Assembly (NCBI GenBank): GCA_017622175.1 | Contig: JAGARQ010000027.1 | Span: forward strand, 6,416-70,415 | DNA: 64,000 bases | From: Bacilli bacterium | GTDB lineage: Bacteria > Bacillota_I > Bacilli_A > RF39 > UBA660 | Reading direction: 5' to 3' | In this document: positions 1-14,754 of the stretch, piece by piece | How positions within the stretch are numbered: the stretch's first letter is position 1 | Layout: each line of letters begins with the position of its first letter | Position numbers and translations under genes: made by a program | Notes under the pieces: model-generated | Told to the model about the DNA's origin: nothing | What the model saw: only the letters and a program-made list of their open reading frames with translations | Databases searched by the model: none

Positions 1-612
1 AATTCTTTTAATTCTTTTCTTTACTTCTTCTATTTTTTCTTTTAATTCTTTATTTATTTCTCCTGTTGCGATTGTATCAGATGTAACTTTAATTTCGATA
101 TGTAACTTTTCTGATAATGTTTCTGTTTTCCCTTTATATTCTAAAAGTTTATTATCTGAAATATCTAATTCTTTTAGTTCATCTTCTCTTTCAAGAACGA
201 ATCTTTCCATGGTATTAACAAGTGTATGTAAGAATCTATTTTCATAAATATTAAATGTTTCTTCATTTCTAATATCTAAGATTTTACCAGGTTCTACCAT
301 ATCAGTTGCTGCATCATATTTATTGATATAGTTTGTATGGCGAGATAAGTCTTTTACACTTTCTACTGTAATTCTTTTGGCTTTTTCAATTAGTTCAACA
401 TTTGCTTCTTGTACTAGTGCTACTTTAGCAACTCTTACAATTTTATCAATTCTTGGACATGCTTCTTCTATCTCATCTAACCAATCAAAAGAAAGCAAGT
501 CTCCATTGTAGGTTGAGGCAAAAGCCATTTCTGATTCTAATTTTTTTAAAAACTTTTTAGTTGAAGTTCTTGCTTCTTCTGTATACTCTTTATCAAATAA
601 ATTATTATTCAT
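1..612 (-). CDS. N-terminal 204 aa of a McrC/DUF2357-like partner protein; the 3' end runs off the window
   Basis: Not in the ORF track. Manual minus-strand translation from the ATG at 610-612 (RBS GGTGG 6 nt upstream) gives MNNNLFDKEYTEEARTSTKKFLKKLESEMAFASTYNGDLLSFDW... and stays open to position 1. It contains ...NEETFNIYENRFLHTLV..., resembling the TxENR(F/L)(L/I) motif of McrC/DUF2357 N-terminal regions. It starts 15 nt after the stop of the McrB-like ATPase. Confidence 0.45.
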   Translation of the reverse strand, partial: MNNNLFDKEYTEEARTSTKKFLKKLESEMAFASTYNGDLLSFDWLDEIEEACPRIDKIVRVAKVALVQEANVELIEKAKRITVESVKDLSRHTNYINKYDAATDMVEPGKILDIRNEETFNIYENRFLHTLVNTMERFVLEREDELKELDISDNKLLEYKGKTETLSEKLHIEIKVTSDTIATGEINKELKEKIEEVKKRIKRI

Positions 613-627
613 TCTTTACCACCCTAT

Positions 628-2166
628 CTAAATAGACTTCTTAAGGTTTGTTAGGTAAGCGATACATTCTTTCATAACGCCTTTACCAAATTTCTTATTT
701 AACCATGCGATGAATGGATCTATTTCATCTCTTATAAGTGCTACACTTAATTGATCAAATTTTCTTAAGATTTTTTTAGCAATGAAGTAATCAATTGCTT
801 CTATTTCTTTTCCTCCACATGCTACATATACTGGAGAGAAAGTATTTAATTGTTTCATAATACGGTTACCGAAAGCAATTCGGAAATGTTCAATAACATA
901 GTCATCGATTTCAACTACAGATTGGTATCCTTTTTCTGTTAATGGGAACTTTTCAATAGCATCTTGGAATAAACTTTCTAAATAGCTTGCGTTAATATCC
1001 ATTGCTTCTTGTTCACGACATTTGAATGGTGCAACCTTAGAGTTAATATCTAATGGCATAGCACGGTCGTAAACTTTATCTGTTACCATGAATGTTGAAT
1101 CGTCGTTGTTGATTGTTCCGATATACCATAAGTTTCCAGGTAATCTTAATTTACCTTTAACTAATCTTTTTGGATCTGTTGGCCAAGCGCTTGATACGAT
1201 ATCAACTAACCATTCTTCACGACTTGGCATTTCTAGAATTGAAAGTAAATCTGCGAAGTAGTATTCTACACGAGCTAGGTTCATTTCATCTAGTATGATT
1301 GTATGTACATCATCATCAAATCCTGCTTCATAGATTTCTCCAAGAGCTCTTGTTTCATTGAACTTCTTAGTGAATTCGTTGAAGTATCCAAGGAAGTCTG
1401 ATTTATCTTTCCATGAAGGTTCAACTGATGATACACACGAATCTTGTTTTACGAATTTTCCCCATGCATATGCTAAGGAAGTTTTACCTGTACCAGAGAT
1501 ACCTTGTAAGATAATTAACTTACCACAAGCAAGTCCTGCAAAGAAAGGACGTAAAATTTCATAGTTATAATATAGTCTTAATTGTGATGCTGAGAAACAT
1601 CTGAAGTTATCAATTAACTCTGCTAATGTGAAATTGTTATCATAATTCTTAGGTTTTGTATCACCTAATTCAGCATCTATCATAGCAAGTTTAGGGAATC
1701 TGATAGTTGGATCTCCATTTTCTTCTTCTCCCTCTTCTCCTTCAGGGTTAACTTCATCCGGATTTTCTTCTTCACCTTCAGGGTTAACTCCTAATTGAGA
1801 AACTTTCATTGCCATAATTTCATCTCTTTCTTTCATTAATCTAGCAACTTCTTTATTTAAGTCTGCTATTTCTGAAAGTAGTGAATCTTTATTAATGTCT
1901 TTGTCATATCTTCTAATCAATTTTCTTATTAACATAATAAGAAGTAATATAATTACTAGAACTATTACTACTAGTAGTATTACTGATAATACTACTAGTA
2001 TTTTTTCAAATGTATTGAAATTACCTTGATAGCTAGATATTAATTTAGCATATTCAGGAATGTTAAACATTTGAATTAGTCCTCCAAATATTCCTTTAAA
2101 TATATCCATGAATCCATCAAAGAAGATTGAGATGAATTCATAAAAGAATCTTATAAATGTATTCAT
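628..2166 (-). CDS. Membrane-tethered McrB-lineage AAA+ (AAA_5) ATPase
   Basis: Walker A is GISGTGKTSLA. The Walker B/McrB-type block is IILDEMNLARVEYYFADLLSILE, and YIGTINNDDSTFMVTDKVYDRA matches the GT(V/M)N..(D/E)...(L)DRA block of COG1401-type McrB homologues. The N-terminus has two hydrophobic segments (one is ILVVLSVILLVVIVLVIILLLIMLI), a coiled coil and an acidic direct repeat VNPEGEE (36-nt period, 1739-1788). Confidence 0.7.
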   Translation of the reverse strand: MNTFIRFFYEFISIFFDGFMDIFKGIFGGLIQMFNIPEYAKLISSYQGNFNTFEKILVVLSVILLVVIVLVIILLLIMLIRKLIRRYDKDINKDSLLSEIADLNKEVARLMKERDEIMAMKVSQLGVNPEGEEENPDEVNPEGEEGEEENGDPTIRFPKLAMIDAELGDTKPKNYDNNFTLAELIDNFRCFSASQLRLYYNYEILRPFFAGLACGKLIILQGISGTGKTSLAYAWGKFVKQDSCVSSVEPSWKDKSDFLGYFNEFTKKFNETRALGEIYEAGFDDDVHTIILDEMNLARVEYYFADLLSILEMPSREEWLVDIVSSAWPTDPKRLVKGKLRLPGNLWYIGTINNDDSTFMVTDKVYDRAMPLDINSKVAPFKCREQEAMDINASYLESLFQDAIEKFPLTEKGYQSVVEIDDYVIEHFRIAFGNRIMKQLNTFSPVYVACGGKEIEAIDYFIAKKILRKFDQLSVALIRDEIDPFIAWLNKKFGKGVMKECIAYLTNLKKSI

Positions 2167-2179
2167 TTCCTACTCCCCT

Positions 2180-4174
2180 CTAGAAATTACCTATCTTACT
2201 AGATATTTCCTCGTACATTATTTTTGGTTTTAAATCTTCTGGTAAAACTTCAATGATGTTTGTTTTAGCAACTTTCTTTCTACTTATAAAGATATAATCT
2301 AAAACATATAGTTCCTTAATATCACTCTTCTTTAGTAGTTCTACATCGTTCATATCTACTGAGAAGTTGAATCCTTTTTTAATTAGTGTTTTAATAACTT
2401 TTTTGTTATCAGATAGACTGTTATATGAAAGTAAGATATTGATATTTTTCTTAGCAAGTTCATCATCTAACATTTCAAATACTTGGTCTAGTTTATTATC
2501 TTTTGTATAAAGTGTATCTGGTACATATACAACATATTTTTTATTAAATTCTCCATTAAACATATCCTTTACTAATTGTGATAGAAGTAAGTTACTAAGA
2601 ACTTTAATTTTATCTTCAGCAATTATTCCTTCAGAATATGTTTTATCTACTATGTATTCACTATATACTTTTGAAAATTGAATGTTATGAGCAAGTTCTA
2701 CTGCATACATGTCTTTTCTAGTTAATTTATTAAACTTCAATTCAAACATATTTGTTTCAATCTTCGATTGAATGAATTTAACCATTCCACTATATGTTTT
2801 TTGAGTTTTTAATAAATTAGTTATTATTTTCTTTAAATCTTGTTGTGATAAATCATTGAATTTAATATATTTTAAAATTCTTTTATTGTATGTATCTTTT
2901 TTCTTTTGTAGGTCTTCAATTTTAAAATCTTCTTCTAAATGATTTATTAGTTGTAAGAACTTAACGTTCTTTTCAACTTTTTCTTCATACTTTTTGTCTG
3001 ATTCTTTGTAAGATGCAATTAATTTATTTCCAACTTCTTCAATTAATTTATCAAGTTTTGATAACATGTTCTTACCGTTGTAATTAAGATTAATATCACC
3101 ACAGTTGTTATAGTATTTAGCATCAATGTATGAATCAATTAATTTATCTTTAATAGTCGGTTCATTGTTTTTTGGTTCTTCTTCTCTATTTAAGATTGTT
3201 ATTATTTCAAGAATTTCTTCTTTTTTAATTAACATTGCTTTTTCAATGATGTTTTTACATTTCTTTTTCTTTCTTTGAATAAGTTCAAGTTTACTTTTAA
3301 TTTTATCTTCGCCAACTTCAACTTCTTCTTTTTCAGCAACTTTAATATTTTCTTTAGCATTTTCGCTTTGTTCTTCTAGTTCTTTTGGTATTTCTTCATA
3401 AACATTTGATAATTCATCTTTATCTACTGAAACCATTCTGAAGAATAATGTTTTTTCCATATCAGATGTATTTTCAAGTTCTGCTTTCATCTTTTCTTTC
3501 ATTTCATCTGAAATTTCTGGTTTTTCTTCTTTTACTTCTCTTATTTCTTCTTTTGGTTCAATAACTTTTTCTTCTTTTACTTCTTCTTTGCTTTCAGATT
3601 TAGCTGTTTTCTTATGTGTTACAGCTCTTTTTACTTTTTCAAGAAGTTCTTTTTCTTTTTCTTTGTCTTCTTGGGTTGTTTTTTTGAATACTTGATTTAC
3701 AAAGAATAGTGTTACGATTATTGCGATTAGTACTATTGGATTAAAGATTGTTTTTCTTAATATTCCAAAGTTTGGTATTACTTTAACAACTTTACCAACT
3801 ATTTGGTCTTTACTAATTGGTGAATCTTTTGCGGTATTTGCATCACCTTTTGTAACATAAGTTCCGTTATATGCCTCAATTACACGGTGTGTAATATATT
3901 CACCTTTATGTTCAAATGTAACTATGTCATTTAGTTTAATATTTTTAGAATATTTAACTACTATCCAATCTCCTGGTTCTATGATTTCACCCATACTTCC
4001 AGTTTGAACTTCAAATACTGAATGTCCAAAGAAACTTGCATAGTCACGTCCTAGTATCTTTACTTGAATATTGTTGTAAACAGTTATAAGTAGAATTACA
4101 CCTAATATAACAATAAATATGTCTAGTAGGATGTTTATTATTTTTTTGATTATACTGTTTTTATTCTCTTTCAT
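2180..4174 (-). CDS. SipW-type (ER/archaeal-type S26) signal peptidase I fused to a ~480-aa K/E-rich C-terminal extension, predicted cytoplasmic
   Basis: The order is N-terminal TM, GSMGEIIEPGD (Ser), ITHRVIE (His), TKGDANTAKD (Asp), a second TM (IVLIAIIVTLFFVNQVF), then a long tail with no motif I recognise. The start is set at the ATG at 4172-4174 (GGGAGTG RBS 6 nt upstream); the track start at 4189 is an alternative. Confidence 0.7.
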   Translation of the reverse strand: MKENKNSIIKKIINILLDIFIVILGVILLITVYNNIQVKILGRDYASFFGHSVFEVQTGSMGEIIEPGDWIVVKYSKNIKLNDIVTFEHKGEYITHRVIEAYNGTYVTKGDANTAKDSPISKDQIVGKVVKVIPNFGILRKTIFNPIVLIAIIVTLFFVNQVFKKTTQEDKEKEKELLEKVKRAVTHKKTAKSESKEEVKEEKVIEPKEEIREVKEEKPEISDEMKEKMKAELENTSDMEKTLFFRMVSVDKDELSNVYEEIPKELEEQSENAKENIKVAEKEEVEVGEDKIKSKLELIQRKKKKCKNIIEKAMLIKKEEILEIITILNREEEPKNNEPTIKDKLIDSYIDAKYYNNCGDINLNYNGKNMLSKLDKLIEEVGNKLIASYKESDKKYEEKVEKNVKFLQLINHLEEDFKIEDLQKKKDTYNKRILKYIKFNDLSQQDLKKIITNLLKTQKTYSGMVKFIQSKIETNMFELKFNKLTRKDMYAVELAHNIQFSKVYSEYIVDKTYSEGIIAEDKIKVLSNLLLSQLVKDMFNGEFNKKYVVYVPDTLYTKDNKLDQVFEMLDDELAKKNINILLSYNSLSDNKKVIKTLIKKGFNFSVDMNDVELLKKSDIKELYVLDYIFISRKKVAKTNIIEVLPEDLKPKIMYEEISSKIGNF

Positions 4175-4213
4175 TAAAGTCACTCCCATTTTATTCGTAT
4201 TCTACCTTATTTT

Positions 4214-4242
4214 ATTATAGCACCCCATACTTTTTTTTACAA
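4214..4242 (-). promoter_or_regulatory. Sigma-A-type promoter with extended -10 for the peptidase/AAA+/McrC-like unit
   Basis: The minus strand reads TTGTAA, a 17-nt spacer, then TGCTATAAT. It lies between the terminator at 4262-4290 and the start codon. Confidence 0.6.
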
Positions 4243-4261: not shown

Positions 4262-4290
4262 ACAAAAAAAAAGACTAGATTTTAGTCTTC
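4262..4290 (-). terminator. Rho-independent terminator ending transcription unit 2
   Basis: The minus strand reads AGACTA-AAATC-TAGTCT followed by T9. The hairpin overlaps the stop codon of the 176-aa gene. Confidence 0.65.
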
Positions 4291-4812
4291 TTCTGCACCG
4301 TATTTAATCTCAACAATTAGAGAGTAAACTTCATAAATAAAGATTAAGAAACATGGTACTAATACTATAAATAAGAATCCCCATTGTGATTCAATAATAG
4401 ATAAAGCTGTTCCTATTTTATCATATGATTCTGTACCAATTCCTGCAACGTATTCCATAGAATATGTTTCTCCGTTTTCATATGCAATAGCATTATCTTC
4501 TACGTAAACATCTCCTATTTTACCATAACTTATTGAAGGAATACCTTTACTGTCAATACGATATGTAAATACTTCATCTCCTATTTTAAGTTGATCTACT
4601 TTTTTCTCTTCAACAATTACTAAGTCACCTTTTTGATATTTTTCAGTTGCGATTTCATCGCGAATAATAACTAAACTTTTTGTACCAAATTGAGTAACTC
4701 CATAGTCATTAAAGTTTAATAATAGAATTGTCATTATTAATGCAAATACAAAATATACTGTTCCGACAAGTCCAATTAAGAATTTTTTGATAGTTTCTAA
4801 TACTTTTTTCAT
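4282..4812 (-). CDS. S26/SipW-like membrane protein lacking the catalytic Ser/His/Asp (pseudo-peptidase)
   Basis: It has the same architecture as SipW: an N-terminal TM, a beta-rich core with KGDLVIVEE...IGDEVFTY, and a C-terminal TM. The GSM position reads RDEIA, HRV reads SYGKI and GDAN reads VEDNA. Strong RBS (GGAGG). Confidence 0.4.
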   Translation of the reverse strand: MKKVLETIKKFLIGLVGTVYFVFALIMTILLLNFNDYGVTQFGTKSLVIIRDEIATEKYQKGDLVIVEEKKVDQLKIGDEVFTYRIDSKGIPSISYGKIGDVYVEDNAIAYENGETYSMEYVAGIGTESYDKIGTALSIIESQWGFLFIVLVPCFLIFIYEVYSLIVEIKYGAEED

Positions 4813-4864: not shown

Positions 4865-5764
4865 CTATTCACATTCTGTAGTTTCTACTAGAGTGAATTC
4901 TTCTTCTGAATATGTTTTAGTTGTATCAGTTTTATAGAATGTATAATTTAAACTATTTTTCTTTGAAAGTTTAAAAATAATTTCATTTATATAGTTTGAA
5001 TTATTTGTTTTATGAGAAATATAATCATTACTATCTTGATCAATAATTAAATTATCTGGATTCCATGTTAATTTTAAACATTTATCTTCATTATAAGAAT
5101 TTGTAATAACAATATTTTCATAGTTTGTTTTTGATTCATATTTTAAATTTAAGCTACCTATATCACTACTATCTTTTGTAAGAATATATTTAGCACTTAT
5201 TTCTTTTTCATATGGAGAAGTTGATTTTGCAGTTATTACTACTGTTGCTGTATCAATAGGATTTCCTTTAGTATCAACAATTTCAAAGAAATGTTCTGAT
5301 TTTGTAGGAACATTTGTCCAACTATATTTTGTACATTGTGATTCATTATAACTTGAGGTATCTACACCATCATTAGTTTCATTTAAACAACCAATTGATG
5401 CGGATAATTTAGCAGTTATTTTATTTTTTTCAGTTCCATTTAAATAACATACTTTAGTACTATTTTCTTCTTCTACTGTACAAGTTATTTCATAATCTAT
5501 ATCTGATTCTGATGCAATATATTTATTTTTACTGTTTTTTATTGAGAATGTAACTTTTTCTCCATCCCAAGAAGTATCTGTTACTTTGTTTTGATCTGAT
5601 GATAATTCATCACTTTCAAAGTAAAATCCTTTAGAACTTAAATAGTAATTAAATGCTGCATCTGAAACATACTTAGCATAAGTTATTCCCCTTGTTAAAA
5701 CAACAAGAATAATTATTCCAAACAATGCATAAAATAAATGTTTTGTAGTATTATCTTTTTTCAT
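4865..5764 (-). CDS. Exported protein with a SipW-cognate-like signal anchor, function unknown
   Basis: The N-terminus is MKKDNTTKHLFYALFGIIILVVLTRGITYAKYVSD. The mature part is Cys-containing and beta-rich. Confidence 0.5.
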   Translation of the reverse strand: MKKDNTTKHLFYALFGIIILVVLTRGITYAKYVSDAAFNYYLSSKGFYFESDELSSDQNKVTDTSWDGEKVTFSIKNSKNKYIASESDIDYEITCTVEEENSTKVCYLNGTEKNKITAKLSASIGCLNETNDGVDTSSYNESQCTKYSWTNVPTKSEHFFEIVDTKGNPIDTATVVITAKSTSPYEKEISAKYILTKDSSDIGSLNLKYESKTNYENIVITNSYNEDKCLKLTWNPDNLIIDQDSNDYISHKTNNSNYINEIIFKLSKKNSLNYTFYKTDTTKTYSEEEFTLVETTECE

Positions 5765-5771
5765 ACTTCAC

Positions 5772-6317
5772 CTACTTCCCTGTTGATTGCCAACTGTTAA
5801 TATCTATATCAATGTAGTCAACTAAGTTTGCATATACTTCACTATTATATTTTGCTGGAAATGTTAATTCTAATGTATATTTATCTGTTACTTTATCATT
5901 ATGAACCATTTTTTGAATTCCAGAATTACAAAGTAATTGATTAGTTGCTTCATCTCTTGAGAAGCCATCATCACAGATAAGCACTGGTTCTTCTACACCT
6001 TCTTTGTATAGTTTAATATCAAGTGGCATAAAATGATAAGTCTTAACAATTACTTGATAATTAATAGTAACATCACTTTTCTTTTGTTCTAGATTGTTAG
6101 CAACTTGAAAAGTATATTTAACAGGTTCATCTCCAGGATTTAAATCAGTAATTGGTAATTCAATTGAATCTGTTTTAGTTGCCTCAAAGATGAACTGGGC
6201 AATTTTTTGATTAGCTATTAAATTAGAATTAGATGTAAAAAGGGAATATGTTATTCCAGTACCTGCGACTAGGATAAAAGAACAAATAACTATAATCATT
6301 ATCTTTTTCTTTATCAT
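5772..6317 (-). CDS. Small TasA/camelysin-like exported protein
   Basis: The signal is IVICSFILVAGTGITYSLFTSNSN (compare TasA GGGTWAAFND), followed by a ~150-aa beta-sandwich-like body. Confidence 0.5.
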   Translation of the reverse strand: MIKKKIMIIVICSFILVAGTGITYSLFTSNSNLIANQKIAQFIFEATKTDSIELPITDLNPGDEPVKYTFQVANNLEQKKSDVTINYQVIVKTYHFMPLDIKLYKEGVEEPVLICDDGFSRDEATNQLLCNSGIQKMVHNDKVTDKYTLELTFPAKYNSEVYANLVDYIDIDINSWQSTGK

Positions 6318-6336
6318 GATATTCCCTTCTTTCTAA

Positions 6337-9300
6337 TTATTTTGTAATGAATTTCTTTTTAATTGTAGTGATTTTACGATCACCATCGAATAGTTCAAAT
6401 CTTAATTCGTAACCATTATTTGCGAACTTTTTATTATTTAATTCAATAATTGTTGATTCTTCTGTTAGACTATATAGCATCTCTCCAGCTGGATTTAGGT
6501 TACCATTTACATAGTCTTTTAAATCAATAAGTTCATATGTTTGATCTGTTGAGATTACTGTTGCACGCTTATATAGTGAAACTTTGATACTCTTATCTTT
6601 TAAGTTAGTTGTATCAAGCATTCTTATTTTTAATTTTGTAGTTGGAATTTCAGTTATTTCTTCACCATTTTCTTTAGTCTTAGAAATAACACTTGTAAAT
6701 TCATGTTCTACATTTTCTTCATCAATTACAGTAATTAATGTATTAAATCCATAGTTTGTTTCTTGTTTGTTTGTAACTTTTACTGGAATTAAAATATTAT
6801 TACTTGAGATACTTGATGTATATTTTCCGTCACTTGCAATAAATGGAGTTATTTGGAAATTATAATCACCTAAATCTAATTTTGTATTTGATAAGTATGT
6901 TGTAATCTTTAGAGCAATTGCTGTTTTATTGGTATTTTCAGCAATATTGATTCTTGTAATACCATCATTATCAGGAGAATATAGATTATCTCCTATTTTA
7001 AAGGCAATATTTTTTAAATGTTCTTTTGAAACAATATTTTGATCTTTATCAATTAATGAAATTGCTATACCTAACTTCTTATTAGTCTTAGTTGTATCAT
7101 AAATTTCTTTATTTTCCGCTAATTTATTTGAAATAAATGTTTCTAAAGAAATTTCTGTTTCTGAATCGCTGTTATAGTAAATAATTTTGTCACCAGATAG
7201 ATTATTTATTTTTATTTCCATATCTTGATTAGGATAAATATTTACTGTTTTGATAGAATCTTTTAATGTAGATACTACCGATTCATTTGCTGAATTTCTT
7301 AATTCTAAATAAGCTTTTAAACTTATTTTTTCAGTAATTTCTGTTTTTGAAAAGTCAACTTTGATACTTAAATCTTTGTCTTTTCTTGCAGTATATTCCG
7401 CATCATTAAATACTTTTGTTGTATCAGTTTGTCCAACTTTGACAAATTTATTTAATGGATATGTTGCATATTTTTCACAATTTTCTTCTGTACAACTTGA
7501 TTCATAATTATATAAATCTTCAGTTGAAGTTACTTTGTATTTAAATACTTCTTTAGTTGTATTATCAAATAAAGTAATTATTGTATTTACTGGCAGAAGC
7601 ATATTTGTTACAAAGTTGTTTGTATCTTTATCTTGATATGTTCTTTCTTCAGTATATTTAAAGTTATATGTAAGGCTTGATTTAGAAGTAATATTTGCTT
7701 CGTTAGAATCTACTTTTTGTTCTGAAAAAGATATTTCTTCTGTATAACCACCAAATACTAAGTTATCTGTACTTACATATTTTACTCTGTCGGCAGCATC
7801 TGTTACTCTTACATATACAATGTAATTACCACATTCAGTTATTTCTATTGGTGAAGTGTAATCTTGCCACTTAGTTCCATCTAAGTTTTTAAGATTTTCT
7901 TCAGTTAGCGTTTCATTTGAAATGTAGTACTTTGTAGATGTAACATCAGCATACCCACCTGTTGCTTCTACATTCAATGTTACTTTTTCTAAAATATTGA
8001 TGTTACTTGGTGTTTCTTTTAATGTTGACCAAGTTTCATCATTCATAGATATTTTAACTACTGGTTCGTTTAAATCTATTACTAAACGTTCACTGTTAAT
8101 GTAAGTAATTTGATCATTCTTATCAACTATTTTTACATATACTGTGTAGTTTCCTTCTTCTTCAATTTTTACCATATTTTCATATAGTGTCCAGTCAGTT
8201 ATTTGCCCTACTTCTTCTCTTGTTTTTAAACCTGTACCTTTGTGAATGTGATAGTAGGCAGTAAAGGTATTTAGTTCATCATTTGAAACTATTCTAAATC
8301 CTACTTGGTTTTTAATATATAAGTTTCTTAATTCATATCCAAGGTTATTCCATGAATATGTTCCAACATAAAGAGTTGCAATTGGATTATTTAAATCATC
8401 AAAATATAGAATTGGATTATAACCTTCTTCGTATACCCAAAGATTATCTTTGTTTTCTTTCAAATCTTCTGAATCAATATATTCTTTAAATCCAAATGTT
8501 TCTTTTAAATCATCATGATTAAAGTCTTCATTTTCTGCATTTACTGTTATTTCTCCTGTAGTTATTTCACCTTCTATAACAGCAATTGGACTGGCGTCTA
8601 AAATGTTATTTACTTCTACTTCTGTGTTTTTAATTTCATTTATTGAATACATTGCTTTTGTTGTACTAAATGAATTTGTGAAATTAACTTTACTATTATT
8701 AGAAATTTTATTAATAAATGAGTTTGTTACAACGGCCTCTAATGTTCCAGAATTATATGTTTTGTCAATGTTTGTTATTTCTGTTGTTCCAGCAATTGTA
8801 CCAATTAATCCTGATGCATATTTAACTGCTTCTATATGCCCTATGTTATATGAATTTGTTAAATCTGTATTTGTTGCATTTGCAACAATACCCGCAGATT
8901 CATTTGTACCATATACATTAGATTTATTAATAATATTTGTAAGTGTCGAAGATGATGCTTTAGCAACAACTCCAGCAGTAACTGCATATGTATCGTATTC
9001 TGTTGTTATATGATATTTTAAATTTTTTAATGTAATAGTTGATGATAATTCATCTGTTACTTTTACTGATAAACTTTCAGGTAATGTATTATTTAAATTA
9101 ATTGTAAATTCACCTGAAGTAATTTCTTGGTCATTAATAATTATTCTTTGATTTTCAGATGTTGTTTCGTATGTACCTGTTAATTTTACTGAAACTGGAG
9201 TTTTTGTTGATACTGGTAAAGTTAATGTTTCTTCTAACTCTGTTTCTGTTTTGTTATATGTTGTATCTTCTAAAGTAAGTATTTCTGTTTCTTTAACTTT

Positions 9301-10011
9301 ATCAGTGGTTCCAACAATATCTCCATCGATAAATACATCTTTAATAGTTGAGTTTGATATTGATGTAGCAAGTGATGCTGTTGTTGAACCACCATATATT
9401 AAAATATTTTCTAGATATAGGTTTTCTACTGTACCTTTTAAGTTGTTAAATAAAGCAAGTTCACTACTATTTTCATCTGTTATATAAAGTCCATAAATTG
9501 AATAATAGTTTCCATTGAAATGACCCTTGAAATTGTTTAGGGTATTAAATTTATTAATATTGGCTGTTTTTTCTCCAGATAAATCACTATTTTGATATAT
9601 CTCTGTTGTATACTCTTTTAAATAAAATTTTGTTTTTTCTACTGTATAAAGTAAATTGTCTTTTGTATATTCTAATGTACCATTATTAATAATAATGTCA
9701 TTTGCTAATTCGAAATAAGTATTTTCATAAGAAGTTTCATGTAACATTTTTTCAAAATATGCTAGTTCTTTAGCATTAGAAATAATATATGGATCTGATG
9801 ATGTTCCCGAACCATTACGATAAGATGAAGCTACTGTTCCATCCCAATTATTTTCATCACTTAATAAAGCATTAATATCAATTCTATTCTTATATCTAGA
9901 TAATGTTGGTATAGCTATTGCAACTGCTAAAACTATTACAGACAAAATAGCAATATATCTTGATTTAGGAATCATTTTAAGTTTTGATATTAGTTTTTTT
10001 AGTTTTGTCAT
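6337..10011 (-). CDS. 1224-aa N-terminally anchored surface protein, GLUG/beta-helix-like N-terminal region plus Ig-like repeats
   Basis: The TM anchor is YIAILSVIVLAVAIAIPTL. GSGTSSDPYIISNAKELAYFEKM...YFELANDIII is typical of beta-helix adhesin N-termini. GLUG-like motifs are present (ESAGIVANATN, YASGLIGTIAGT). Confidence 0.55.
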   Translation of the reverse strand: MTKLKKLISKLKMIPKSRYIAILSVIVLAVAIAIPTLSRYKNRIDINALLSDENNWDGTVASSYRNGSGTSSDPYIISNAKELAYFEKMLHETSYENTYFELANDIIINNGTLEYTKDNLLYTVEKTKFYLKEYTTEIYQNSDLSGEKTANINKFNTLNNFKGHFNGNYYSIYGLYITDENSSELALFNNLKGTVENLYLENILIYGGSTTASLATSISNSTIKDVFIDGDIVGTTDKVKETEILTLEDTTYNKTETELEETLTLPVSTKTPVSVKLTGTYETTSENQRIIINDQEITSGEFTINLNNTLPESLSVKVTDELSSTITLKNLKYHITTEYDTYAVTAGVVAKASSSTLTNIINKSNVYGTNESAGIVANATNTDLTNSYNIGHIEAVKYASGLIGTIAGTTEITNIDKTYNSGTLEAVVTNSFINKISNNSKVNFTNSFSTTKAMYSINEIKNTEVEVNNILDASPIAVIEGEITTGEITVNAENEDFNHDDLKETFGFKEYIDSEDLKENKDNLWVYEEGYNPILYFDDLNNPIATLYVGTYSWNNLGYELRNLYIKNQVGFRIVSNDELNTFTAYYHIHKGTGLKTREEVGQITDWTLYENMVKIEEEGNYTVYVKIVDKNDQITYINSERLVIDLNEPVVKISMNDETWSTLKETPSNINILEKVTLNVEATGGYADVTSTKYYISNETLTEENLKNLDGTKWQDYTSPIEITECGNYIVYVRVTDAADRVKYVSTDNLVFGGYTEEISFSEQKVDSNEANITSKSSLTYNFKYTEERTYQDKDTNNFVTNMLLPVNTIITLFDNTTKEVFKYKVTSTEDLYNYESSCTEENCEKYATYPLNKFVKVGQTDTTKVFNDAEYTARKDKDLSIKVDFSKTEITEKISLKAYLELRNSANESVVSTLKDSIKTVNIYPNQDMEIKINNLSGDKIIYYNSDSETEISLETFISNKLAENKEIYDTTKTNKKLGIAISLIDKDQNIVSKEHLKNIAFKIGDNLYSPDNDGITRINIAENTNKTAIALKITTYLSNTKLDLGDYNFQITPFIASDGKYTSSISSNNILIPVKVTNKQETNYGFNTLITVIDEENVEHEFTSVISKTKENGEEITEIPTTKLKIRMLDTTNLKDKSIKVSLYKRATVISTDQTYELIDLKDYVNGNLNPAGEMLYSLTEESTIIELNNKKFANNGYELRFELFDGDRKITTIKKKFITK

Positions 10012-10116: not shown

Positions 10117-11737
10117 TTTCATTTTCTAGTTTGTATTTGTTTACTTTTGTAATAAACCAAATCTTTTCAATAGATGTAGAACTATTATCTATTTTATGTG
10201 TTCTCAAGATAATATTTATTTTGTTTAGTAGAGGTTTTAAATTATCCTCAATTAAATCTTCTTCTTCAATGTGAATATTACTTAATCTATATTTATTAGC
10301 AATTATTCTTGGTAAATTTGAATCTTGGAATACTGCTACTCCATTGATAATCACATTCGTTGGATTCATTGCATATAGGTCAAAGTTTTCACTATATTTA
10401 ATTACATCCTCATATGTAGTTAATCTATATACCTTTTGAATTGCAATCTTTTTGAAATAATCAAAACTATAATATAAATTTAGTAAATCTGAAATAGACA
10501 TTGTACCAGATAGTACTTGCATTACTTCATCATTGAAATATTCTTCATCATATTTCTTATATAACTCATATAACTCTTTAGCTTTAATTACAGTTTCCAT
10601 TTTAAGATTTTTAAGTTCAACATCACTTTGAACTTTAAATAATCTTGGTTTATTTGAATATATTCTTTTATTAAGTTTTGAAAGCTCTTCTTCTTTTTTA
10701 TCAATTTGTACTTCGATATCTTTAAAACTCTTATGGTTTGTTTTTTTAGTTGATAAAGTACTTACTATTTTTTCATATTTAGATTTAAAATCTTTAAATA
10801 ATGCTGAAAATTCATAGTAATTTGTAAGTTCACTAATATTTAGTTTAAACTTTTCTAAAGCATCACAAATATTATTCATTTTATCTTTATCATCTAAGTT
10901 AAATGAATCTGCAATTAAAGATTGATATGCTTGAGTTCTAACTTTACTAGATTCTAAGTATTGTTCTATATCAATTGCTCCACTTTTTGATAATTCAATT
11001 ATGTCAGCAATTGTTTCTTTTTGACGCATGTTAAGTTCAATATATGCTTCTTGTAATTCTTCAATGCTTTCAGCATAACTTTTAACATTAGTTTTAGCCA
11101 TTTCTTCTCTTTGTAATGAAGAAATGTAGGCATTAAGTTTCTTTTGATTTTTTCTAATTAGTTTTCTGAAGTTTAATTCAATATGTTGAATTATTTCAGG
11201 ATTTAACCAATATATTTGTTCAAATATTTGAGAAACTTTTGTATAGTCTTTGTCTTTGTTATGACGTACATCTAAGAATGCAGACATATATTCATGAACA
11301 TAACATGTATAGTCAAAATCATCACAGTTTAAGTGAATTCCTGCTTGATCGAACTTATCTAAAAATCCATTAATAATAACATTTAAAGATTTAAAGTTTA
11401 ATGTATAGTAATTATTTATTTGATATATAAGGGTATCAAAACCCATTTTTTCTAGATATGTATTTGAGGGATTTAGAAGAAATTTTACACGTTCTAAGCT
11501 AACTACTTTTTCTTTTATTTTATTGATATCTTCACCTTTATCTACTTTAGATAAAGCTGCAGCTTTTACTGACATATATTTAAATAATTTATCTTTATAA
11601 TCTTGATATTTCTTTGTATATTCAGTAATTGTATCATTAAATTTTTTCTTGTTAGCTTTAGTTTTTGTAGGCATAGATTGAATATTTTCTTTTTTTCCTT
11701 CTATGTCTTTATTTATGAATTCTAAAAAATTATTCAT
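10103..11737 (-). CDS. 544-aa predicted cytoplasmic, largely helical protein of unknown function
   Basis: A long ORF with no signal peptide or TM, rich in K/E/N. Its start overlaps the preceding 50-aa ORF by 8 nt. Confidence 0.6.
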   Translation of the reverse strand: MNNFLEFINKDIEGKKENIQSMPTKTKANKKKFNDTITEYTKKYQDYKDKLFKYMSVKAAALSKVDKGEDINKIKEKVVSLERVKFLLNPSNTYLEKMGFDTLIYQINNYYTLNFKSLNVIINGFLDKFDQAGIHLNCDDFDYTCYVHEYMSAFLDVRHNKDKDYTKVSQIFEQIYWLNPEIIQHIELNFRKLIRKNQKKLNAYISSLQREEMAKTNVKSYAESIEELQEAYIELNMRQKETIADIIELSKSGAIDIEQYLESSKVRTQAYQSLIADSFNLDDKDKMNNICDALEKFKLNISELTNYYEFSALFKDFKSKYEKIVSTLSTKKTNHKSFKDIEVQIDKKEEELSKLNKRIYSNKPRLFKVQSDVELKNLKMETVIKAKELYELYKKYDEEYFNDEVMQVLSGTMSISDLLNLYYSFDYFKKIAIQKVYRLTTYEDVIKYSENFDLYAMNPTNVIINGVAVFQDSNLPRIIANKYRLSNIHIEEEDLIEDNLKPLLNKINIILRTHKIDNSSTSIEKIWFITKVNKYKLENEKTNE

Positions 11738-11882
11738 CGTCTTTACCCTTTTCTTCTGTTTCTAATTTACTCTCTTCTAAAAAATCTAAGAAAATTTCTA
11801 TATTTTCATATACTTCTACTAATTCTTCTAATGTTAATGTGGATAGATCAAAATTAATTTTATTTTCTTCTGTCACCTGCAT
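11730..11882 (-). CDS. 50-aa highly acidic peptide
   Basis: The start is reset to the ATG at 11880-11882 (GAGGGGA RBS 7 nt upstream). The product is MQVTEENKINFDLSTLTLEELVEVYENIEIFLDFLEESKLETEEKGKDDE. It is translationally coupled to the next gene. The track's longer version would overlap the upstream gene. Confidence 0.5.
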   Translation of the reverse strand: MQVTEENKINFDLSTLTLEELVEVYENIEIFLDFLEESKLETEEKGKDDE

Positions 11883-11901
11883 CACCATTCCCCTCGTTGT
11901 A

Positions 11902-13059
11902 TTATTCATTAAAAGCATCCCATCCAGCTGTATCTTTAGTAAAGTCAATTCCGATTTCTACTTCTGCTCCTTCTGAGTCAGTTTCTAAGCTATCGACATC
12001 TTGACCTTCTATCCAGACATAGATTCTTGCTTTTGTTATACCATTTGGTATTTCAAATATAGCCCTATCAAAGTCATTTTCATCTCTTGTTTCTTGTAAT
12101 TTATAGTATTCAGTATTAAGAGATGGACCTGGTATTGATTCTTTTACATATATTTTTGAACCAGCTTTTTTTGAAGCATAAGTTGGGAATTTTATTCCAT
12201 CAATAAGTTCAATATCATGTTTTGCAGCTCTTTCTATAGATAAGTCTGTATGATTCTTACTATTTGGTTCAAATATAATTTGTTGACAATTGTTATTACA
12301 ACTTACATTTTGTATTTCATTAACTGATGCATTTAGATTTACACTTCCAATTCTTACGATACCAATTCTAAATGAATTTACTAATCCAAGCATTTCTTCA
12401 CTAATATTTTCATCAATTGCTTGAATTATGGTTGTATCTTGTAAGTATAAATTATCACTTTCTGGTGATCCAGTATCATTTTTAATGAATAAGTCGAATG
12501 CAAGATATGAGTTATATTCTCTAGGAGCACTTTCTTTCGCAATTCTTGTTCTTAAAAAACCATTAAGTCTTTCTCGATCATGTCTTGTATACATTACTCC
12601 GCTTGTCTCATACATATTAAATTTTGGGGTATTACTATTAGGAATTCCACTACTTGAAACGGGAATAAATCCATTTGCAGCCCATTGATTTGTATGATTT
12701 GGATATAATTCATATAAATCATCAATTATAGTATTTTTTGTAATTTCAAGATTATGCTCGAAATTTACACCATCAAATGAAATTGATAAATCACTATTTT
12801 TTTCAATTACCATTCTAAATGTTTTAATTTTAACATTTAAGTTGGTTGAAAACCATGCATATGTTGAAAATATTAGTAATATACCAAGTAATAATATAAC
12901 TATTGTTGTTAGTTTTTTATTAATTTTTCTTGGTACAAATTCTTCTGAAACTTGCATTACTTTTTTATTTTTTATGCTTGTTTTCTTATTCTTTTTGGGG
13001 TGTTTTTGTGTGCTAGTTTTAGTTGTCTTGGTTGTCTTTTTAGTTGTTTTTTTTGTCAC
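11902..13059 (-). CDS. TasA-like paralogue C (385 aa) with a SipW-cognate-type signal anchor
   Basis: GTG start with an AAGGTGG RBS and a K/T-rich N-terminal tail. Shared family blocks are LLIFSTYAWFSTNLNV, SYLAFDLFIKNDTG and RIYVWIEGQDVDS. Confidence 0.6.
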   Translation of the reverse strand: MTKKTTKKTTKTTKTSTQKHPKKNKKTSIKNKKVMQVSEEFVPRKINKKLTTIVILLLGILLIFSTYAWFSTNLNVKIKTFRMVIEKNSDLSISFDGVNFEHNLEITKNTIIDDLYELYPNHTNQWAANGFIPVSSSGIPNSNTPKFNMYETSGVMYTRHDRERLNGFLRTRIAKESAPREYNSYLAFDLFIKNDTGSPESDNLYLQDTTIIQAIDENISEEMLGLVNSFRIGIVRIGSVNLNASVNEIQNVSCNNNCQQIIFEPNSKNHTDLSIERAAKHDIELIDGIKFPTYASKKAGSKIYVKESIPGPSLNTEYYKLQETRDENDFDRAIFEIPNGITKARIYVWIEGQDVDSLETDSEGAEVEIGIDFTKDTAGWDAFNE

Positions 13060-13087
13060 TTAGACACCACCTTTTTATACAAATAAG

Positions 13088-13126
13088 GGTAACACCCCAA
13101 CACTAGTTGGTGTGGGAAGTGTTACC
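13088..13126 (-). terminator. GC-rich intra-operon hairpin (attenuator or 3'-end stabiliser) after the 519-aa paralogue
   Basis: GGTAACAC (13088-13095) pairs with GTGTTACC (13119-13126), with further inner C/G pairs. T-rich tracts lie on both sides. This is the most GC-rich local structure in the locus. Confidence 0.5.
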
Positions 13127-13159
13127 TCTTTTATTTGTTATGTTAATTATTTATTCTGC

Positions 13160-14719
13160 TTATGCAGCAGCTTCAAATTTCCATTTACCGTCAGCAAAAG
13201 ATGCTTTCATATTACCATCTTTAGATGATGTGAATGTAAATTCTGTTACATTATCTTCTTTTACGAAGTAGAATGCTTTAGTTTCTGCATCCCATACGAT
13301 GTTTTTACTTGCTGGAGCTGTAGTAACTACATTAGTAATTTCAGCACCGTCAGTTGGAGCGTAAGCAACTTTTTGAGTTCCTTCAGCACCTGGGATTAGA
13401 GATACTGGTTCATCAGTATAATCTTCATTTGTATATCTTTCTTTAGTGAATCCGAAGTTAACTTGAATTGCTTTTCCTAATTGAGCAAAGTCATAGTTAT
13501 CAACATCTTGTCCTTCGATATATACATAAACTCTTACTTTAGTAATACTATTTGGAGCTAATGTCATGAATACGTTACGAGCAGCACCTTTTACATCTCT
13601 TTCAGTTTCAGTGAATGTATCAACTGCTACTAATTTATATGTATCGTCATCATCTTCTCCTAATGGACCATTTGCTTTAGCTGCTAAATATTTATCATAT
13701 GTCATATTTTCAGCTGCACCAGTAGTTCCTGTTGGTTCTACAGTGTTTGCTTTATATTTGTTATATGATAATCCATCATATACATCTACATAATCATCGA
13801 TATTAATTTCTCTTGAAATTGCATATGTTGGTAAATAACTACCATTTGTAACTGTGTTACAACGTGCAGATTCTGATTTTTCTGTATAAGTGAACTTAGT
13901 TCCTGTTGTTCTTAAAGCACATGATTCATCATACCATTTAATTGCATTAGAGATATGATCTTTATCATTTGGTTCCCAGATAGTTGCAGTTCTTGTACAA
14001 ATACCTGTTACTGCTCCAGCTGTTGAACAAGTAATTCCTGTTACTGTTGATACTGGATTTGTATCATCACCTGTTTTGTATTCTTTGTTTTCAACACGTC
14101 CGATTTGCGCAAATGCTACACGAACTGAGTTTTCAATACCTGTATTTTGTGTTCCAGATGTTCCTACTGTTACATCTGAATCATAAGTTAAGTAAATTGC
14201 TTCTTCATTTTCTGGATTATAATTTGTATAATATTTTTCTCCGGACATATTTCTAATGAATAAGTCGAAAGCTAAATATCCATCAGCTTCTGCAGTTGCA
14301 CTATTATTAACTTTACTAGCTAATAATCTGTATCCACCAGCAGTTGCTGTTAAACTTCCTTTTTCGAATAAAGTTAATTTATTCTTTGTTGAATCAATAT
14401 CACCAACAGTTGACATTGGAATTAATCCTTTACCACCTGCTGCTAAATATGCTTCTGAATCCCTTGTTGTTAACCATTGGTTTTGGTTGTTTGCATATTG
14501 TGGTGCTGTTACTGTATCTAATTCTGTTGTCCATGTTTCACCATCTAGTGATAACATTAGACCTTCAGTAGTAGCAATTTTAACTTCGAATGAGTTAACT
14601 CTAACTGTTTGCATACCAATGAACCATGCATAAGTTGAAACAGTTAATAAGATTGCTGTTAGAACACAAACAAACACTAAATTTCTAATTTTTTTAGTAC
14701 GTTTATTATTTCTTTTCAT
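13160..14719 (-). CDS. TasA-like paralogue B (519 aa), candidate major subunit
   Basis: Family blocks are LLTVSTYAWFIGMQTVRVNSFEVKIA, GYLAFDLFIRNMSGE, TGIENSVRVAFAQ, IWEPNDK and VRVYVYIEGQDVDNYDF. The C-terminal ~90 aa are divergent. Confidence 0.6.
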   Translation of the reverse strand: MKRNNKRTKKIRNLVFVCVLTAILLTVSTYAWFIGMQTVRVNSFEVKIATTEGLMLSLDGETWTTELDTVTAPQYANNQNQWLTTRDSEAYLAAGGKGLIPMSTVGDIDSTKNKLTLFEKGSLTATAGGYRLLASKVNNSATAEADGYLAFDLFIRNMSGEKYYTNYNPENEEAIYLTYDSDVTVGTSGTQNTGIENSVRVAFAQIGRVENKEYKTGDDTNPVSTVTGITCSTAGAVTGICTRTATIWEPNDKDHISNAIKWYDESCALRTTGTKFTYTEKSESARCNTVTNGSYLPTYAISREINIDDYVDVYDGLSYNKYKANTVEPTGTTGAAENMTYDKYLAAKANGPLGEDDDDTYKLVAVDTFTETERDVKGAARNVFMTLAPNSITKVRVYVYIEGQDVDNYDFAQLGKAIQVNFGFTKERYTNEDYTDEPVSLIPGAEGTQKVAYAPTDGAEITNVVTTAPASKNIVWDAETKAFYFVKEDNVTEFTFTSSKDGNMKASFADGKWKFEAAA

Positions 14720-14754
14720 ACTTTTCCTCCGTTTATTTTTTTAAGTATGTCATA

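Follow-up and report, generated by a model that had tools for sequence, protein, structure and literature searches.

The 64,000-nucleotide (nt) stretch of contig JAGARQ010000027.1 analysed here (positions 6,416 to 70,415; GenBank assembly GCA_017622175.1; hereafter the window) comes from an uncultured gut member of the Bacilli with low GC content and carries at one end three consecutive genes encoding a signal peptidase fused to a second domain, a membrane-anchored GTPase related to McrB and a protein related to McrC. All relevant genes in the window are on the reverse (-) strand, and coordinates refer to the window unless a locus number (L-number) indicates another contig or locus. Gene 1 (2180-4189) encodes 669 amino acids (aa) when counted from the first ATG, gene 2 (628-2166) encodes 512 aa, and gene 3 (1-612) is cut by the window edge, leaving the first 204 of its 378 residues inside. 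The original prediction for this region was made from the letters of the sequence without database searches; the short gaps it reported between the genes were confirmed at 13 nt (gene 1/gene 2) and 15 nt (gene 2/gene 3), and every motif it quoted is present, namely GSMGE, THRV, KGDAN, GISGTGKTSLA, the blocks beginning IILDEMN and GTINNDDSTF, two copies of VNPEGEE, and YENRFL. The locus is a member of the CoCoPALM class, which has been named without experimental study (Bell, Makarova, Wolf and Koonin, eLife 2024, PMC11090510; accessible text), and most likely represents a restriction-enzyme-derived machine for cell-surface assembly or regulation.

The GTPase and its McrC-like partner

The gene 2 product was divided into three parts. 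Residues 1-127 (1786..2166) form an N-terminal module made up of an amphipathic N-terminus, a transmembrane helix (residues ~55-82) and a heptad-rich coiled coil that ends in AMKVSQLGxxPxE. In this module M1, T3, F4, F7, Y9, E10, F11 and A119-G126 are at least 90% conserved, and clearly homologous modules were found in Ruminococcus and Oscillospiraceae proteins. An acidic, variable linker with the VNPEGEE repeat follows (residues 128-153; 1708..1785), a region that is unconserved in the orthologue alignment, and the remainder is an AAA+ GTPase domain of the McrB type, NxD branch (residues 154-512; 628..1707). As the coiled coil is contiguous with the GTPase domain, it must be cytoplasmic. The DNA-reading domain of McrB is, as had been proposed, replaced by a membrane anchor, a coiled coil and the acidic VNPEGEE linker.

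The GTPase domain carries Walker A (GISGTGKT), Walker B (ILDEMN) and the signature N353-x-D355-D356 (N353-N354-D355-D356). When a profile built from 20 gene 2 orthologues was compared with the whole PDB, the sole matches were to Escherichia coli McrB (6hz4, 6ut6 and 7vsr; E = 1.6e-5 to 3.5e-5), in an alignment spanning Walker A, Walker B and the McrB signature loop, and no MoxR, RavA, dynein-type or other AAA+ protein was found at E values up to 1. Assignment to MoxR or another AAA_5 clade was rejected because McrB alone was matched in the PDB, and the McrB lineage first suggested for gene 2 thus holds. In Pfam, gene 2 has no significant match, and AAA_5 itself was not reached. Among the best 150 cluster representatives from the scan described below, the signature reads GT[AI]N-x-D-[DE]-ST[FY], where x is variable (N, K, T, Q, R, H, I, V and others). 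An NxxD signature, suggested by an ungapped alignment to E. coli McrB, was also rejected, as the second position is free; the signature is NxD followed by D or E, because x varies across the representatives while D355 is fixed.

Of all proteins in the cluster, gene 2 is the most highly conserved, with 55-90% identity across species and 202 of 512 positions at least 90% conserved over 80 species. This conserved set includes Walker A, Walker B, N353, D355 and R368. No frameshift or stop codon was seen. Judged from these alignments, gene 2 is under very strong purifying selection and is predicted to encode an active enzyme.

The complete gene 3 was read from a metagenome contig identical to the window sequence. 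The exact gene 2 protein is encoded on two 77-kb metagenome contigs (L001 and L002), both of which contain the window sequence and run past position 1, and on L001 gene 3 occupies 11555-12691 and encodes 378 aa. It matches Pfam DUF2357, the McrC N-terminal domain, in both truncated (30.9 bits) and complete form (29 bits; cut-off 23.3), consistent with the McrC/DUF2357-like character assigned to it originally. In an alignment of 76 orthologues, the conserved boxes are YENR and P-x2-KTN-x2-LKN-x-NF-x2-A-x2-LW, and past residue 251 the only conserved positions are F285, Y289 and F363, hence there is no D...(D/E)xK motif. The PD-(D/E)xK partner that had been expected was not found: full-length gene 3 has no PDDEXK match in Pfam and no match to a nuclease family, and eight more distant homologues (364-1269 aa) have no PD-(D/E)xK match. 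Several of these distant homologues carry long coiled coils or coiled-coil inserts. The AlphaFold2 (AF2) model of gene 3 is poor (predicted local distance difference test score, pLDDT, 53.5), with low-confidence long helices at residues 117-147 and 184-212 and an all-helical C-terminal part; Foldseek found nothing below E = 0.97 for this model, and a profile search of the PDB gave no meaningful match. On sequence grounds, gene 3 encodes a DUF2357 protein with no detectable nuclease.

One of the distant homologues, an open reading frame (ORF) of 1269 aa at L157 (11121-14927, +), combines a DUF2357-family McrC-like protein with a DegV fatty-acid-binding domain (75.7 bits). This may be a genuine fusion, which would hint at a connection to lipids or the membrane, or else a merged ORF.

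Domain X, the transcription unit and neighbouring genes

The N-terminal part of gene 1 (residues 1-175; 3665..4189) is a signal peptidase I domain that lies between N- and C-terminal transmembrane helices. It matches TIGR02228 with 64.4 bits (cut-off 51.85), with the Ser/His dyad present, and Pfam Peptidase_S24 with 28 bits, and the catalytic Ser (GSM), His (THR) and Asp (GDAN) are kept across orthologues. The SipW-type peptidase recognised earlier is borne out, and by its sequence the domain is a SipW/archaeal-type signal peptidase I of the active type. The first ATG (4189) is probably not the true start of the gene, and the ATG at 4174 appears likelier; it gives a product of 664 aa, is preceded 8 nt upstream by GGAG, the better Shine-Dalgarno sequence of the two, agrees with the starts of the orthologues, and is the start used in the gene calls of the identical metagenome contig.

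The peptidase domain is followed in the translation by a K/E-rich, low-complexity cytoplasmic linker (residues ~176-304; 3278..3664) and then by a region referred to here as domain X (residues ~305-669; 2183..3277), in which a helical N-terminal half precedes an EAL-like alpha/beta half. In the clade closer to the window, the protein directly upstream of the GTPase is a peptidase-X fusion of 666-811 aa, and the length differences among these fused orthologues sit in the K/E-rich linker. A sister clade (L049-L083) encodes the peptidase on its own, in a gene of ~175 aa located elsewhere in the cluster, and there the gene directly upstream of the GTPase encodes a 315-336-aa protein with no transmembrane segment that aligns end to end with residues ~305-669 of gene 1. 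The alignments therefore identify the gene 1 tail as a protein that is separate and cytoplasmic in the sister clade and fused to the peptidase in this one. This tail had been described as ~480 aa without a recognisable motif; no motif was found at the level of sequence, but it contains a discrete domain with a predicted EAL-like fold.

In the AF2 model of X the pLDDT is 74 overall and 85-94 in the C-terminal half. The top 50 Foldseek matches of this model in the PDB are all EAL domains (E from 6e-5, probability 1.00), including Bd1971, FimX, MucR, MorA, LapD, YahA and YdiV, and the helical N-terminal half of ~150 residues lies outside the EAL-like part. Pfam EAL gave no match to gene 1 or X at E <=0.1, and the EAL, DDFGTG and KID motifs were not recognisable by eye in the X alignment. 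X is thus modelled as an EAL-like fold that is almost certainly non-catalytic. The fold of its C-terminal half resembles that of the degenerate EAL receptors and adaptors FimX, LapD and YdiV/RflP, whereas X has no sequence-level relationship to these proteins and has a helical N-terminal half of its own.

The three genes had been taken to form their own unit. However, a same-strand gene for a 222-aa SipW/archaeal-type signal peptidase begins 7 nt beyond gene 3 on L001, and 30 nt beyond this lies a same-strand gene for a 407-aa protein with an N-terminal anchor. The first convincing terminator on L001 occurs only after the 407-aa gene (-13.1 kcal/mol, z = -4.1), where it faces a convergent gene for a 260-aa secreted protein. 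Given these short gaps and the position of the terminator, the predicted transcription unit most likely comprises five genes rather than three. Genes for a cation-efflux protein and a LepB-type peptidase flank the locus.

Ahead of gene 1, the extended -10 promoter proposed at 4214..4242 (TTGTAA-17-TGCTATAAT; 10/12 matches plus TG) is the top-scoring promoter-like site in the first 9 kb of the window. The score alone proves little, as promoter-like sites are not in excess in the scanned region (51 found, 60 expected by chance). The comparative data were considered decisive: of 34 related genomes, 22 have a TTGTAA-N17-TGnTAAAAT element no more than 260 nt upstream of the gene 1 orthologue, whereas the background rate is 0.027 per 300 nt. 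The promoter was accordingly judged to be conserved. The promoter spacer itself is kept in the orthologous spacers of L004-L051 (TTGTAAAAAAATGTCGAATATGnTAAAAT), often with TGTCGA, and the recurrence of this sequence suggests a regulator binding site overlapping the promoter.

The terminator reported just upstream of this promoter (4262..4290) does include a hairpin followed by a U9 tract, but its strength had been overstated. The hairpin has two G-C pairs and is absent from the terminator-scan list, and folding of the surrounding 51 nt gives -10.7 kcal/mol (z = -1.8). Of the 34 orthologous spacers, 32 contain six or more consecutive T, and in 21 this run lies ahead of the promoter element. A terminator here is plausible but weak, probably a leaky one serving the upstream pilin-like and pseudo-peptidase genes, and a conserved weak terminator next to a conserved promoter is what the data support. 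A second terminator-like element, a 14-bp inverted repeat with a T-run at 1969-2000 (+), was flagged on the antisense strand inside gene 2. It falls where the Leu/Val/Ile-rich transmembrane helix is encoded and probably arises simply from codon repetition.

Two further peptidase paralogues accompany gene 1. The downstream 222-aa peptidase matches TIGR02228 with 79.4 bits (cut-off 51.85), and an alignment of the three paralogue families revealed that its family keeps the Ser and the His and not the Asp. The 176-aa SipW-like protein encoded upstream of gene 1 (4282..4812) reaches 17.9 bits, below the same cut-off, and retains both transmembrane helices but has lost the GDxN box along with the catalytic Ser and His; its position in the cluster is conserved across the clade. 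In streptococcal pilus systems, SipA/LepA are inactive signal peptidases that serve as chaperones, and the conserved, dead 176-aa paralogue recalls SipA. By analogy, it may be an assembly chaperone.

Beyond the pseudo-peptidase lie genes for three secreted proteins of 299, 181 and 1224 aa (4865..10011), all of which combine an N-terminal anchor of the SipW type with a TY(A/S)x(F/Y) motif. Among 24 members of the 181-aa family, five match Pfam Peptidase_M73 (camelysin/TasA; best E = 1e-5), though the window's own copy has no match, and the other families gave none. Further upstream, three ORFs of 385, 519 and 480 aa (11902-16197) encode an N-terminal anchor followed by STYAWF; the 519- and 480-aa ORFs are paralogues of each other, and all three lack an assignment in Pfam and NCBIfam. 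With these ORFs included, the McrBC-like unit is surrounded by at least eight proteins carrying SipW-type signals. Two of the 21 members of the convergently encoded 260-aa family weakly match TapA (E = 0.058), and profile searches of the PDB with the 181-aa and 260-aa families gave no meaningful match.

Distribution and relation to known systems

Homologues of gene 2 were found in at least 468 species-representative Bacilli genomes, the best 80 of which were retrieved, and synteny was read over 81 loci. The carriers are uncultured gut bins labelled 'Bacilli', 'Tenericutes' or 'Mollicutes', Clostridium sp. CAG:628 and CAG:567, and Candidatus Coprovivens, which NCBI places in Bacilli incertae sedis; presumably these belong to the GTDB order RF39. 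Over the 81 loci, the order of a ~20-kb cluster is kept almost without exception: genes for the 1224-aa, 181-aa, 299-aa and 176-aa proteins, gene 1 (or X), gene 2, gene 3, and the 222-aa and 407-aa genes, with the 260-aa gene convergent to them. Adjacent pairs are found in 75-79 of the 81 loci with median gaps of 3-17 nt, and gene 3 lies downstream of gene 2 in 79 loci (median 15 nt). The trio is thus conserved in related genomes and is found there alongside TasA-like genes. In the sister clade, X begins 0-32 nt after the homologue of the 299-aa, pilin-like gene, placing the McrBC-like genes inside the pilin/peptidase operon. The earlier description of a stand-alone module consequently does not apply, as the genes are embedded in a TasA-like/SipW cluster and, in one clade, predicted to be co-transcribed with it.

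When the GTPase domain was scanned against the full set of 1.84 billion cluster representatives, 8143 matches were obtained at E <=1e-3 and 697 at E <=1e-30. The N-terminal regions of the best 150 fall into a gene 2-like group with one or two transmembrane helices (450-560 aa), a group with four or five transmembrane helices (550-700 aa; P0305, P0308-P0311, P0317-P0321, P0324 and others), and a group with no transmembrane helix (700-900 aa) that resembles the CoCoNuT systems discussed below. Using a representative 40% identical to gene 2, at least 528 matching stretches were found, from which 78 loci, mostly of Lachnospiraceae, Ruminococcus, Oscillospiraceae and Christensenellales, were retrieved. 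In 38 of these Clostridia loci a peptidase gene lies directly upstream of the GTPase gene and a McrC-like gene downstream, usually flanked by genes for signal-motif proteins and a second peptidase. Variants of this peptidase-GTPase-McrC arrangement account for five more, bringing the association with signal peptidases to 43 of 78.

A different arrangement was found in 24 of the 78 loci (L084-L108 and L114-L119, from Lachnospiraceae and other Clostridia), where two membrane-anchored NxD GTPase paralogues flank one DUF2357 gene. No signal peptidase was detectable within 10 kb of these 24 loci, and the GTPase-McrC-GTPase arrangement is a related but distinct architecture. The metagenome-assembled genome isolate SUG986 holds two paralogous loci, one (L058) with X, the GTPase and the McrC-like gene, and the other (L143) in which the GTPase and McrC-like genes are accompanied by signal-motif proteins and a peptidase-like protein of 385 aa.

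It was also considered whether a McrBC remnant with an unrelated or decaying function has simply become trapped in a surface-protein cluster. Nothing specific favours incidental adjacency of this kind, and it is very improbable given that peptidase, GTPase and McrC-like genes lie side by side in two classes of Bacillota, that the peptidase is fused to X, that the genes are tightly spaced (the medians given above), that gene 2 is under very strong purifying selection, and that no frameshifts or stops were seen. The adjacency in 76-79 of the 81 Bacilli loci and in 38 of the 78 Clostridia loci, together with the pattern of fusion and splitting, instead supports the earlier suggestion of joint action of the peptidase and the McrBC-like pair at the membrane.

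The original prediction knew of no described system with this architecture. However, in the accessible text of Bell et al. (PMC11090510), an NxD branch of McrB GTPases is described and the name CoCoPALM is given to NxD-motif GTPases that have an FtsB-like N-terminus of transmembrane and coiled-coil segments and are linked to proteins of the signal-peptidase family. The NxD motif is there said to be usually followed by E or a second D (PMC11090510). The account of CoCoPALM in that text is a single computational paragraph that gives no mechanism and defers to a forthcoming publication (PMC11090510). The text-form supplementary files of the same paper, which concerns CoCoNuT, do not mention CoCoPALM. 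A literature search located neither a later paper naming CoCoPALM nor the promised follow-up, and returned nothing on PDC-M26, on SipW in RF39, or on a membrane McrB with DUF2357.

Compared with that accessible description, the NxD(D/E) signature, the association with signal peptidases and an adjacent DUF2357 McrC homologue are all present at this locus. The transmembrane helix and coiled coil, which correspond to the FtsB-like module of CoCoPALM, are likewise present, with homology to FtsB/DivIC that is below threshold, and the helical and coiled-coil content of the CoCoPALM McrC homologue corresponds to that predicted at low confidence for gene 3. The accessible text makes no mention of the EAL-like X or of its being fused to an active SipW-type peptidase. 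Nor does it mention that one of the three peptidase paralogues is active, one partly degenerate and one dead, that one substrate family has an affinity to TasA/camelysin, or that the locus is conserved in this lineage of Bacilli. Relative to the published account as far as accessible, the fusion of an EAL-like adaptor to a peptidase, the series of peptidase paralogues and the conserved promoter may be new features.

The locus shares with E. coli McrBC the AAA+ core of gene 2, with Walker A, Walker B and the signature loop, and the McrC N-terminal domain of gene 3. In McrBC, the N-terminal domain of McrC inserts in the McrB ring and stimulates hydrolysis (as given in the accessible text of PMC11090510). 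Unlike McrBC, gene 2 has an NxD rather than NxxD signature and a membrane anchor and coiled coil in place of an N-terminal DNA-recognition domain, gene 3 has no detectable PD-(D/E)xK nuclease, and the locus is chromosomal and syntenic, not in an island. With CoCoNuT (CnuB/CnuC) it shares the NxD GTPase branch and a coiled coil N-terminal to the GTPase, and CoCoNuT McrC homologues are often reported to have no active nuclease (PMC11090510, accessible text). In contrast, the CoCoNuT-like GTPases in the representative set are 700-900 aa long with no transmembrane segment. CoCoNuT systems are paired with HEPN or other nucleases and with RNA-binding domains (PMC11090510, accessible text), whereas no HEPN or other nuclease and no RNA-binding domain was found at this locus.

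These relatives bear on a possible role in defence. An anti-phage or anti-plasmid system derived from type IV restriction, in which an envelope or pilus signal such as phage adsorption activates the GTPase and thereby an effector or an abortive response, would be in keeping with the GTPase core being closest to the PADLOC candidate-defence model PDC-M26A (1.6e-39; residues 197-314 on model positions 314-432 of 724), for which CoCoNuT is probably the source. CoCoNuT, itself predicted to be defensive, belongs to the same NxD branch (PMC11090510, accessible text), and relatives of the GTPase domain occur on plasmids. However, in PADLOC none of gene 3, X or the peptidase has a match, and PDC-M26 is not matched as a whole system, with the GTPase core alone fitting. 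Gene 3, X and the relatives that were examined revealed no nuclease and no recognisable effector. No relatives were detected among the 2.9 million viral contigs of IMG/VR, and plasmids yielded no full-length copy, their matches being to the GTPase domain at no more than 41% identity and 61% query coverage; an origin from a mobile element or defence island was rejected on these grounds. Gene order and context are kept in 81 Bacilli genomes with 55-90% identity in gene 2, unlike patchy, fast-evolving islands, and the neighbours of the locus are the cation-efflux protein and LepB-type peptidase genes, not defence genes. A defence function is thus distinctly unlikely, and the envelope-triggered defence module put forward originally finds no support in the PADLOC partner searches, the viral and plasmid sequences or the fixed gene order.

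A proposed role at the cell surface

In two classes of Bacillota the locus is found together with TasA-like proteins and peptidases, in one clade the peptidase is fused to X, and the cluster includes a conserved pseudo-peptidase; it is on this basis that a role in surface assembly is proposed. With no nuclease or effector, no PADLOC match for the partners, no relatives in IMG/VR, no full-length plasmid copy and a fixed synteny, the balance of evidence moderately favours the CoCoPALM locus being a GTP-driven or GTP-gated assembly platform for TasA-like fibres, rather than a nucleic-acid-targeting defence system. A maturation or quality-control machine for the SipW-type substrates had been offered as one original alternative; it comes close to what now appears to be the best reading.

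In the proposed mechanism, the GTPase would form a McrB-like hexameric ring under the membrane, held there by its transmembrane helices and coiled-coil stalks, and the McrC-like protein would plug the ring and stimulate GTP hydrolysis as McrC does in McrBC. X would dock on the GTPase-McrC complex and so tether the peptidase, a tether that would be covalent in the clade of the window. A GTP-driven conformational change would then pass across the membrane, and GTP turnover would gate or power two steps, the cleavage of membrane-anchored TasA-like subunits and their transfer to the growing surface fibre; the pseudo-peptidase may serve as an assembly chaperone.

The closest parallel for the secreted part of the locus is the tapA-sipW-tasA operon of Bacillus, where ER (endoplasmic reticulum)/archaeal-type signal peptidases are likewise encoded with TasA/camelysin-like secreted proteins. 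Most putative substrates here, in contrast to those of tapA-sipW-tasA, have no detectable similarity to TasA or TapA, and neither that operon nor the SipA/LepA pilus systems include an NTPase, a McrC-like protein or an EAL-like protein, unlike this locus. A more far-reaching proposal can be made tentatively, namely that CoCoPALM is an NTP-powered route of surface-fibre (pilus) biogenesis in single-membrane bacteria, in which a McrB ring and a nuclease-less McrC plug have been re-used as a membrane-tethered engine. In this Bacilli lineage the engine would be connected to the peptidase by X, a degenerate EAL-like adaptor that possibly senses a cyclic dinucleotide. The PilB ATPase and prepilin peptidase of type IV pili provide an analogy for the McrB ring and SipW-type peptidases in such a route.

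A number of observations weigh against the assembly platform, which is a reading computed from genes. No McrB-family ring is known to drive secretion or polymerisation. Most of the putative substrates received no family assignment in the profile searches. The missing nuclease is a matter of sequence evidence, as the model of gene 3 is unusable. Homology of the gene 2 N-terminus to FtsB is below threshold: when the first 100 residues of gene 2 and four homologues were searched against Pfam, DivIC was matched below threshold in three of the five (E = 0.0027-0.14), the window's own gene 2 had no DivIC match, and the DivIC/FtsL matches sit among many generic transmembrane matches. Moreover, the coiled coil of FtsB is periplasmic and that of gene 2 cytoplasmic. 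The EAL assignment of X is one of fold, with a target-normalised TM-score of no more than 0.53; the X profile found no EAL protein in the PDB at E <=10 and no meaningful match; and hhalign of X against E. coli PdeH, PdeL and RflP gave a probability of 0.07, a weak negative given the thin three-sequence template. X was detectable in just 3 of the 78 Clostridia loci and is therefore not a universal part of the machine.

Bacillus TasA fibres are not known to need any NTPase for their assembly, and TasA-type fibres are generally regarded as polymerising without energy input. This also speaks for a different role, in which the McrBC-like pair is a regulator or a quality-control device, either a GTP switch on the tethered peptidases that responds through EAL-like sensing or a means of clearing cleaved anchors and stalled subunits. 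The anatomy of the locus fits such a role equally well, X resembles degenerate EAL proteins (FimX, LapD and YdiV) that regulate rather than catalyse, and the TGTCGA conserved in the promoter spacer hints at regulation. However, most Clostridia loci keep the peptidase-GTPase-McrC core without X, so that X-dependent sensing cannot be the general function, and the near-invariance of the GTPase is no less in keeping with a mechanical core than with a switch. Although the data fit both readings, regulation or quality control is considered unlikely as the principal role, and assembly of TasA-like fibres is preferred.

The occurrence of fused and split forms of the peptidase and X amounts to a testable prediction of protein contacts. 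If the assembly platform is correct, a widespread restriction-enzyme motor would have been converted to a cell-surface assembly machine, in at least 468 species-level genomes of Bacilli and at least 528 further stretches, mostly from Clostridia. A GTPase associated with the fibres would then change the picture of energy-free TasA polymerisation for a large part of the gut Bacillota, and the conserved ~20-kb fibre locus provides a handle on attachment and aggregation in these abundant, largely uncultured gut lineages.

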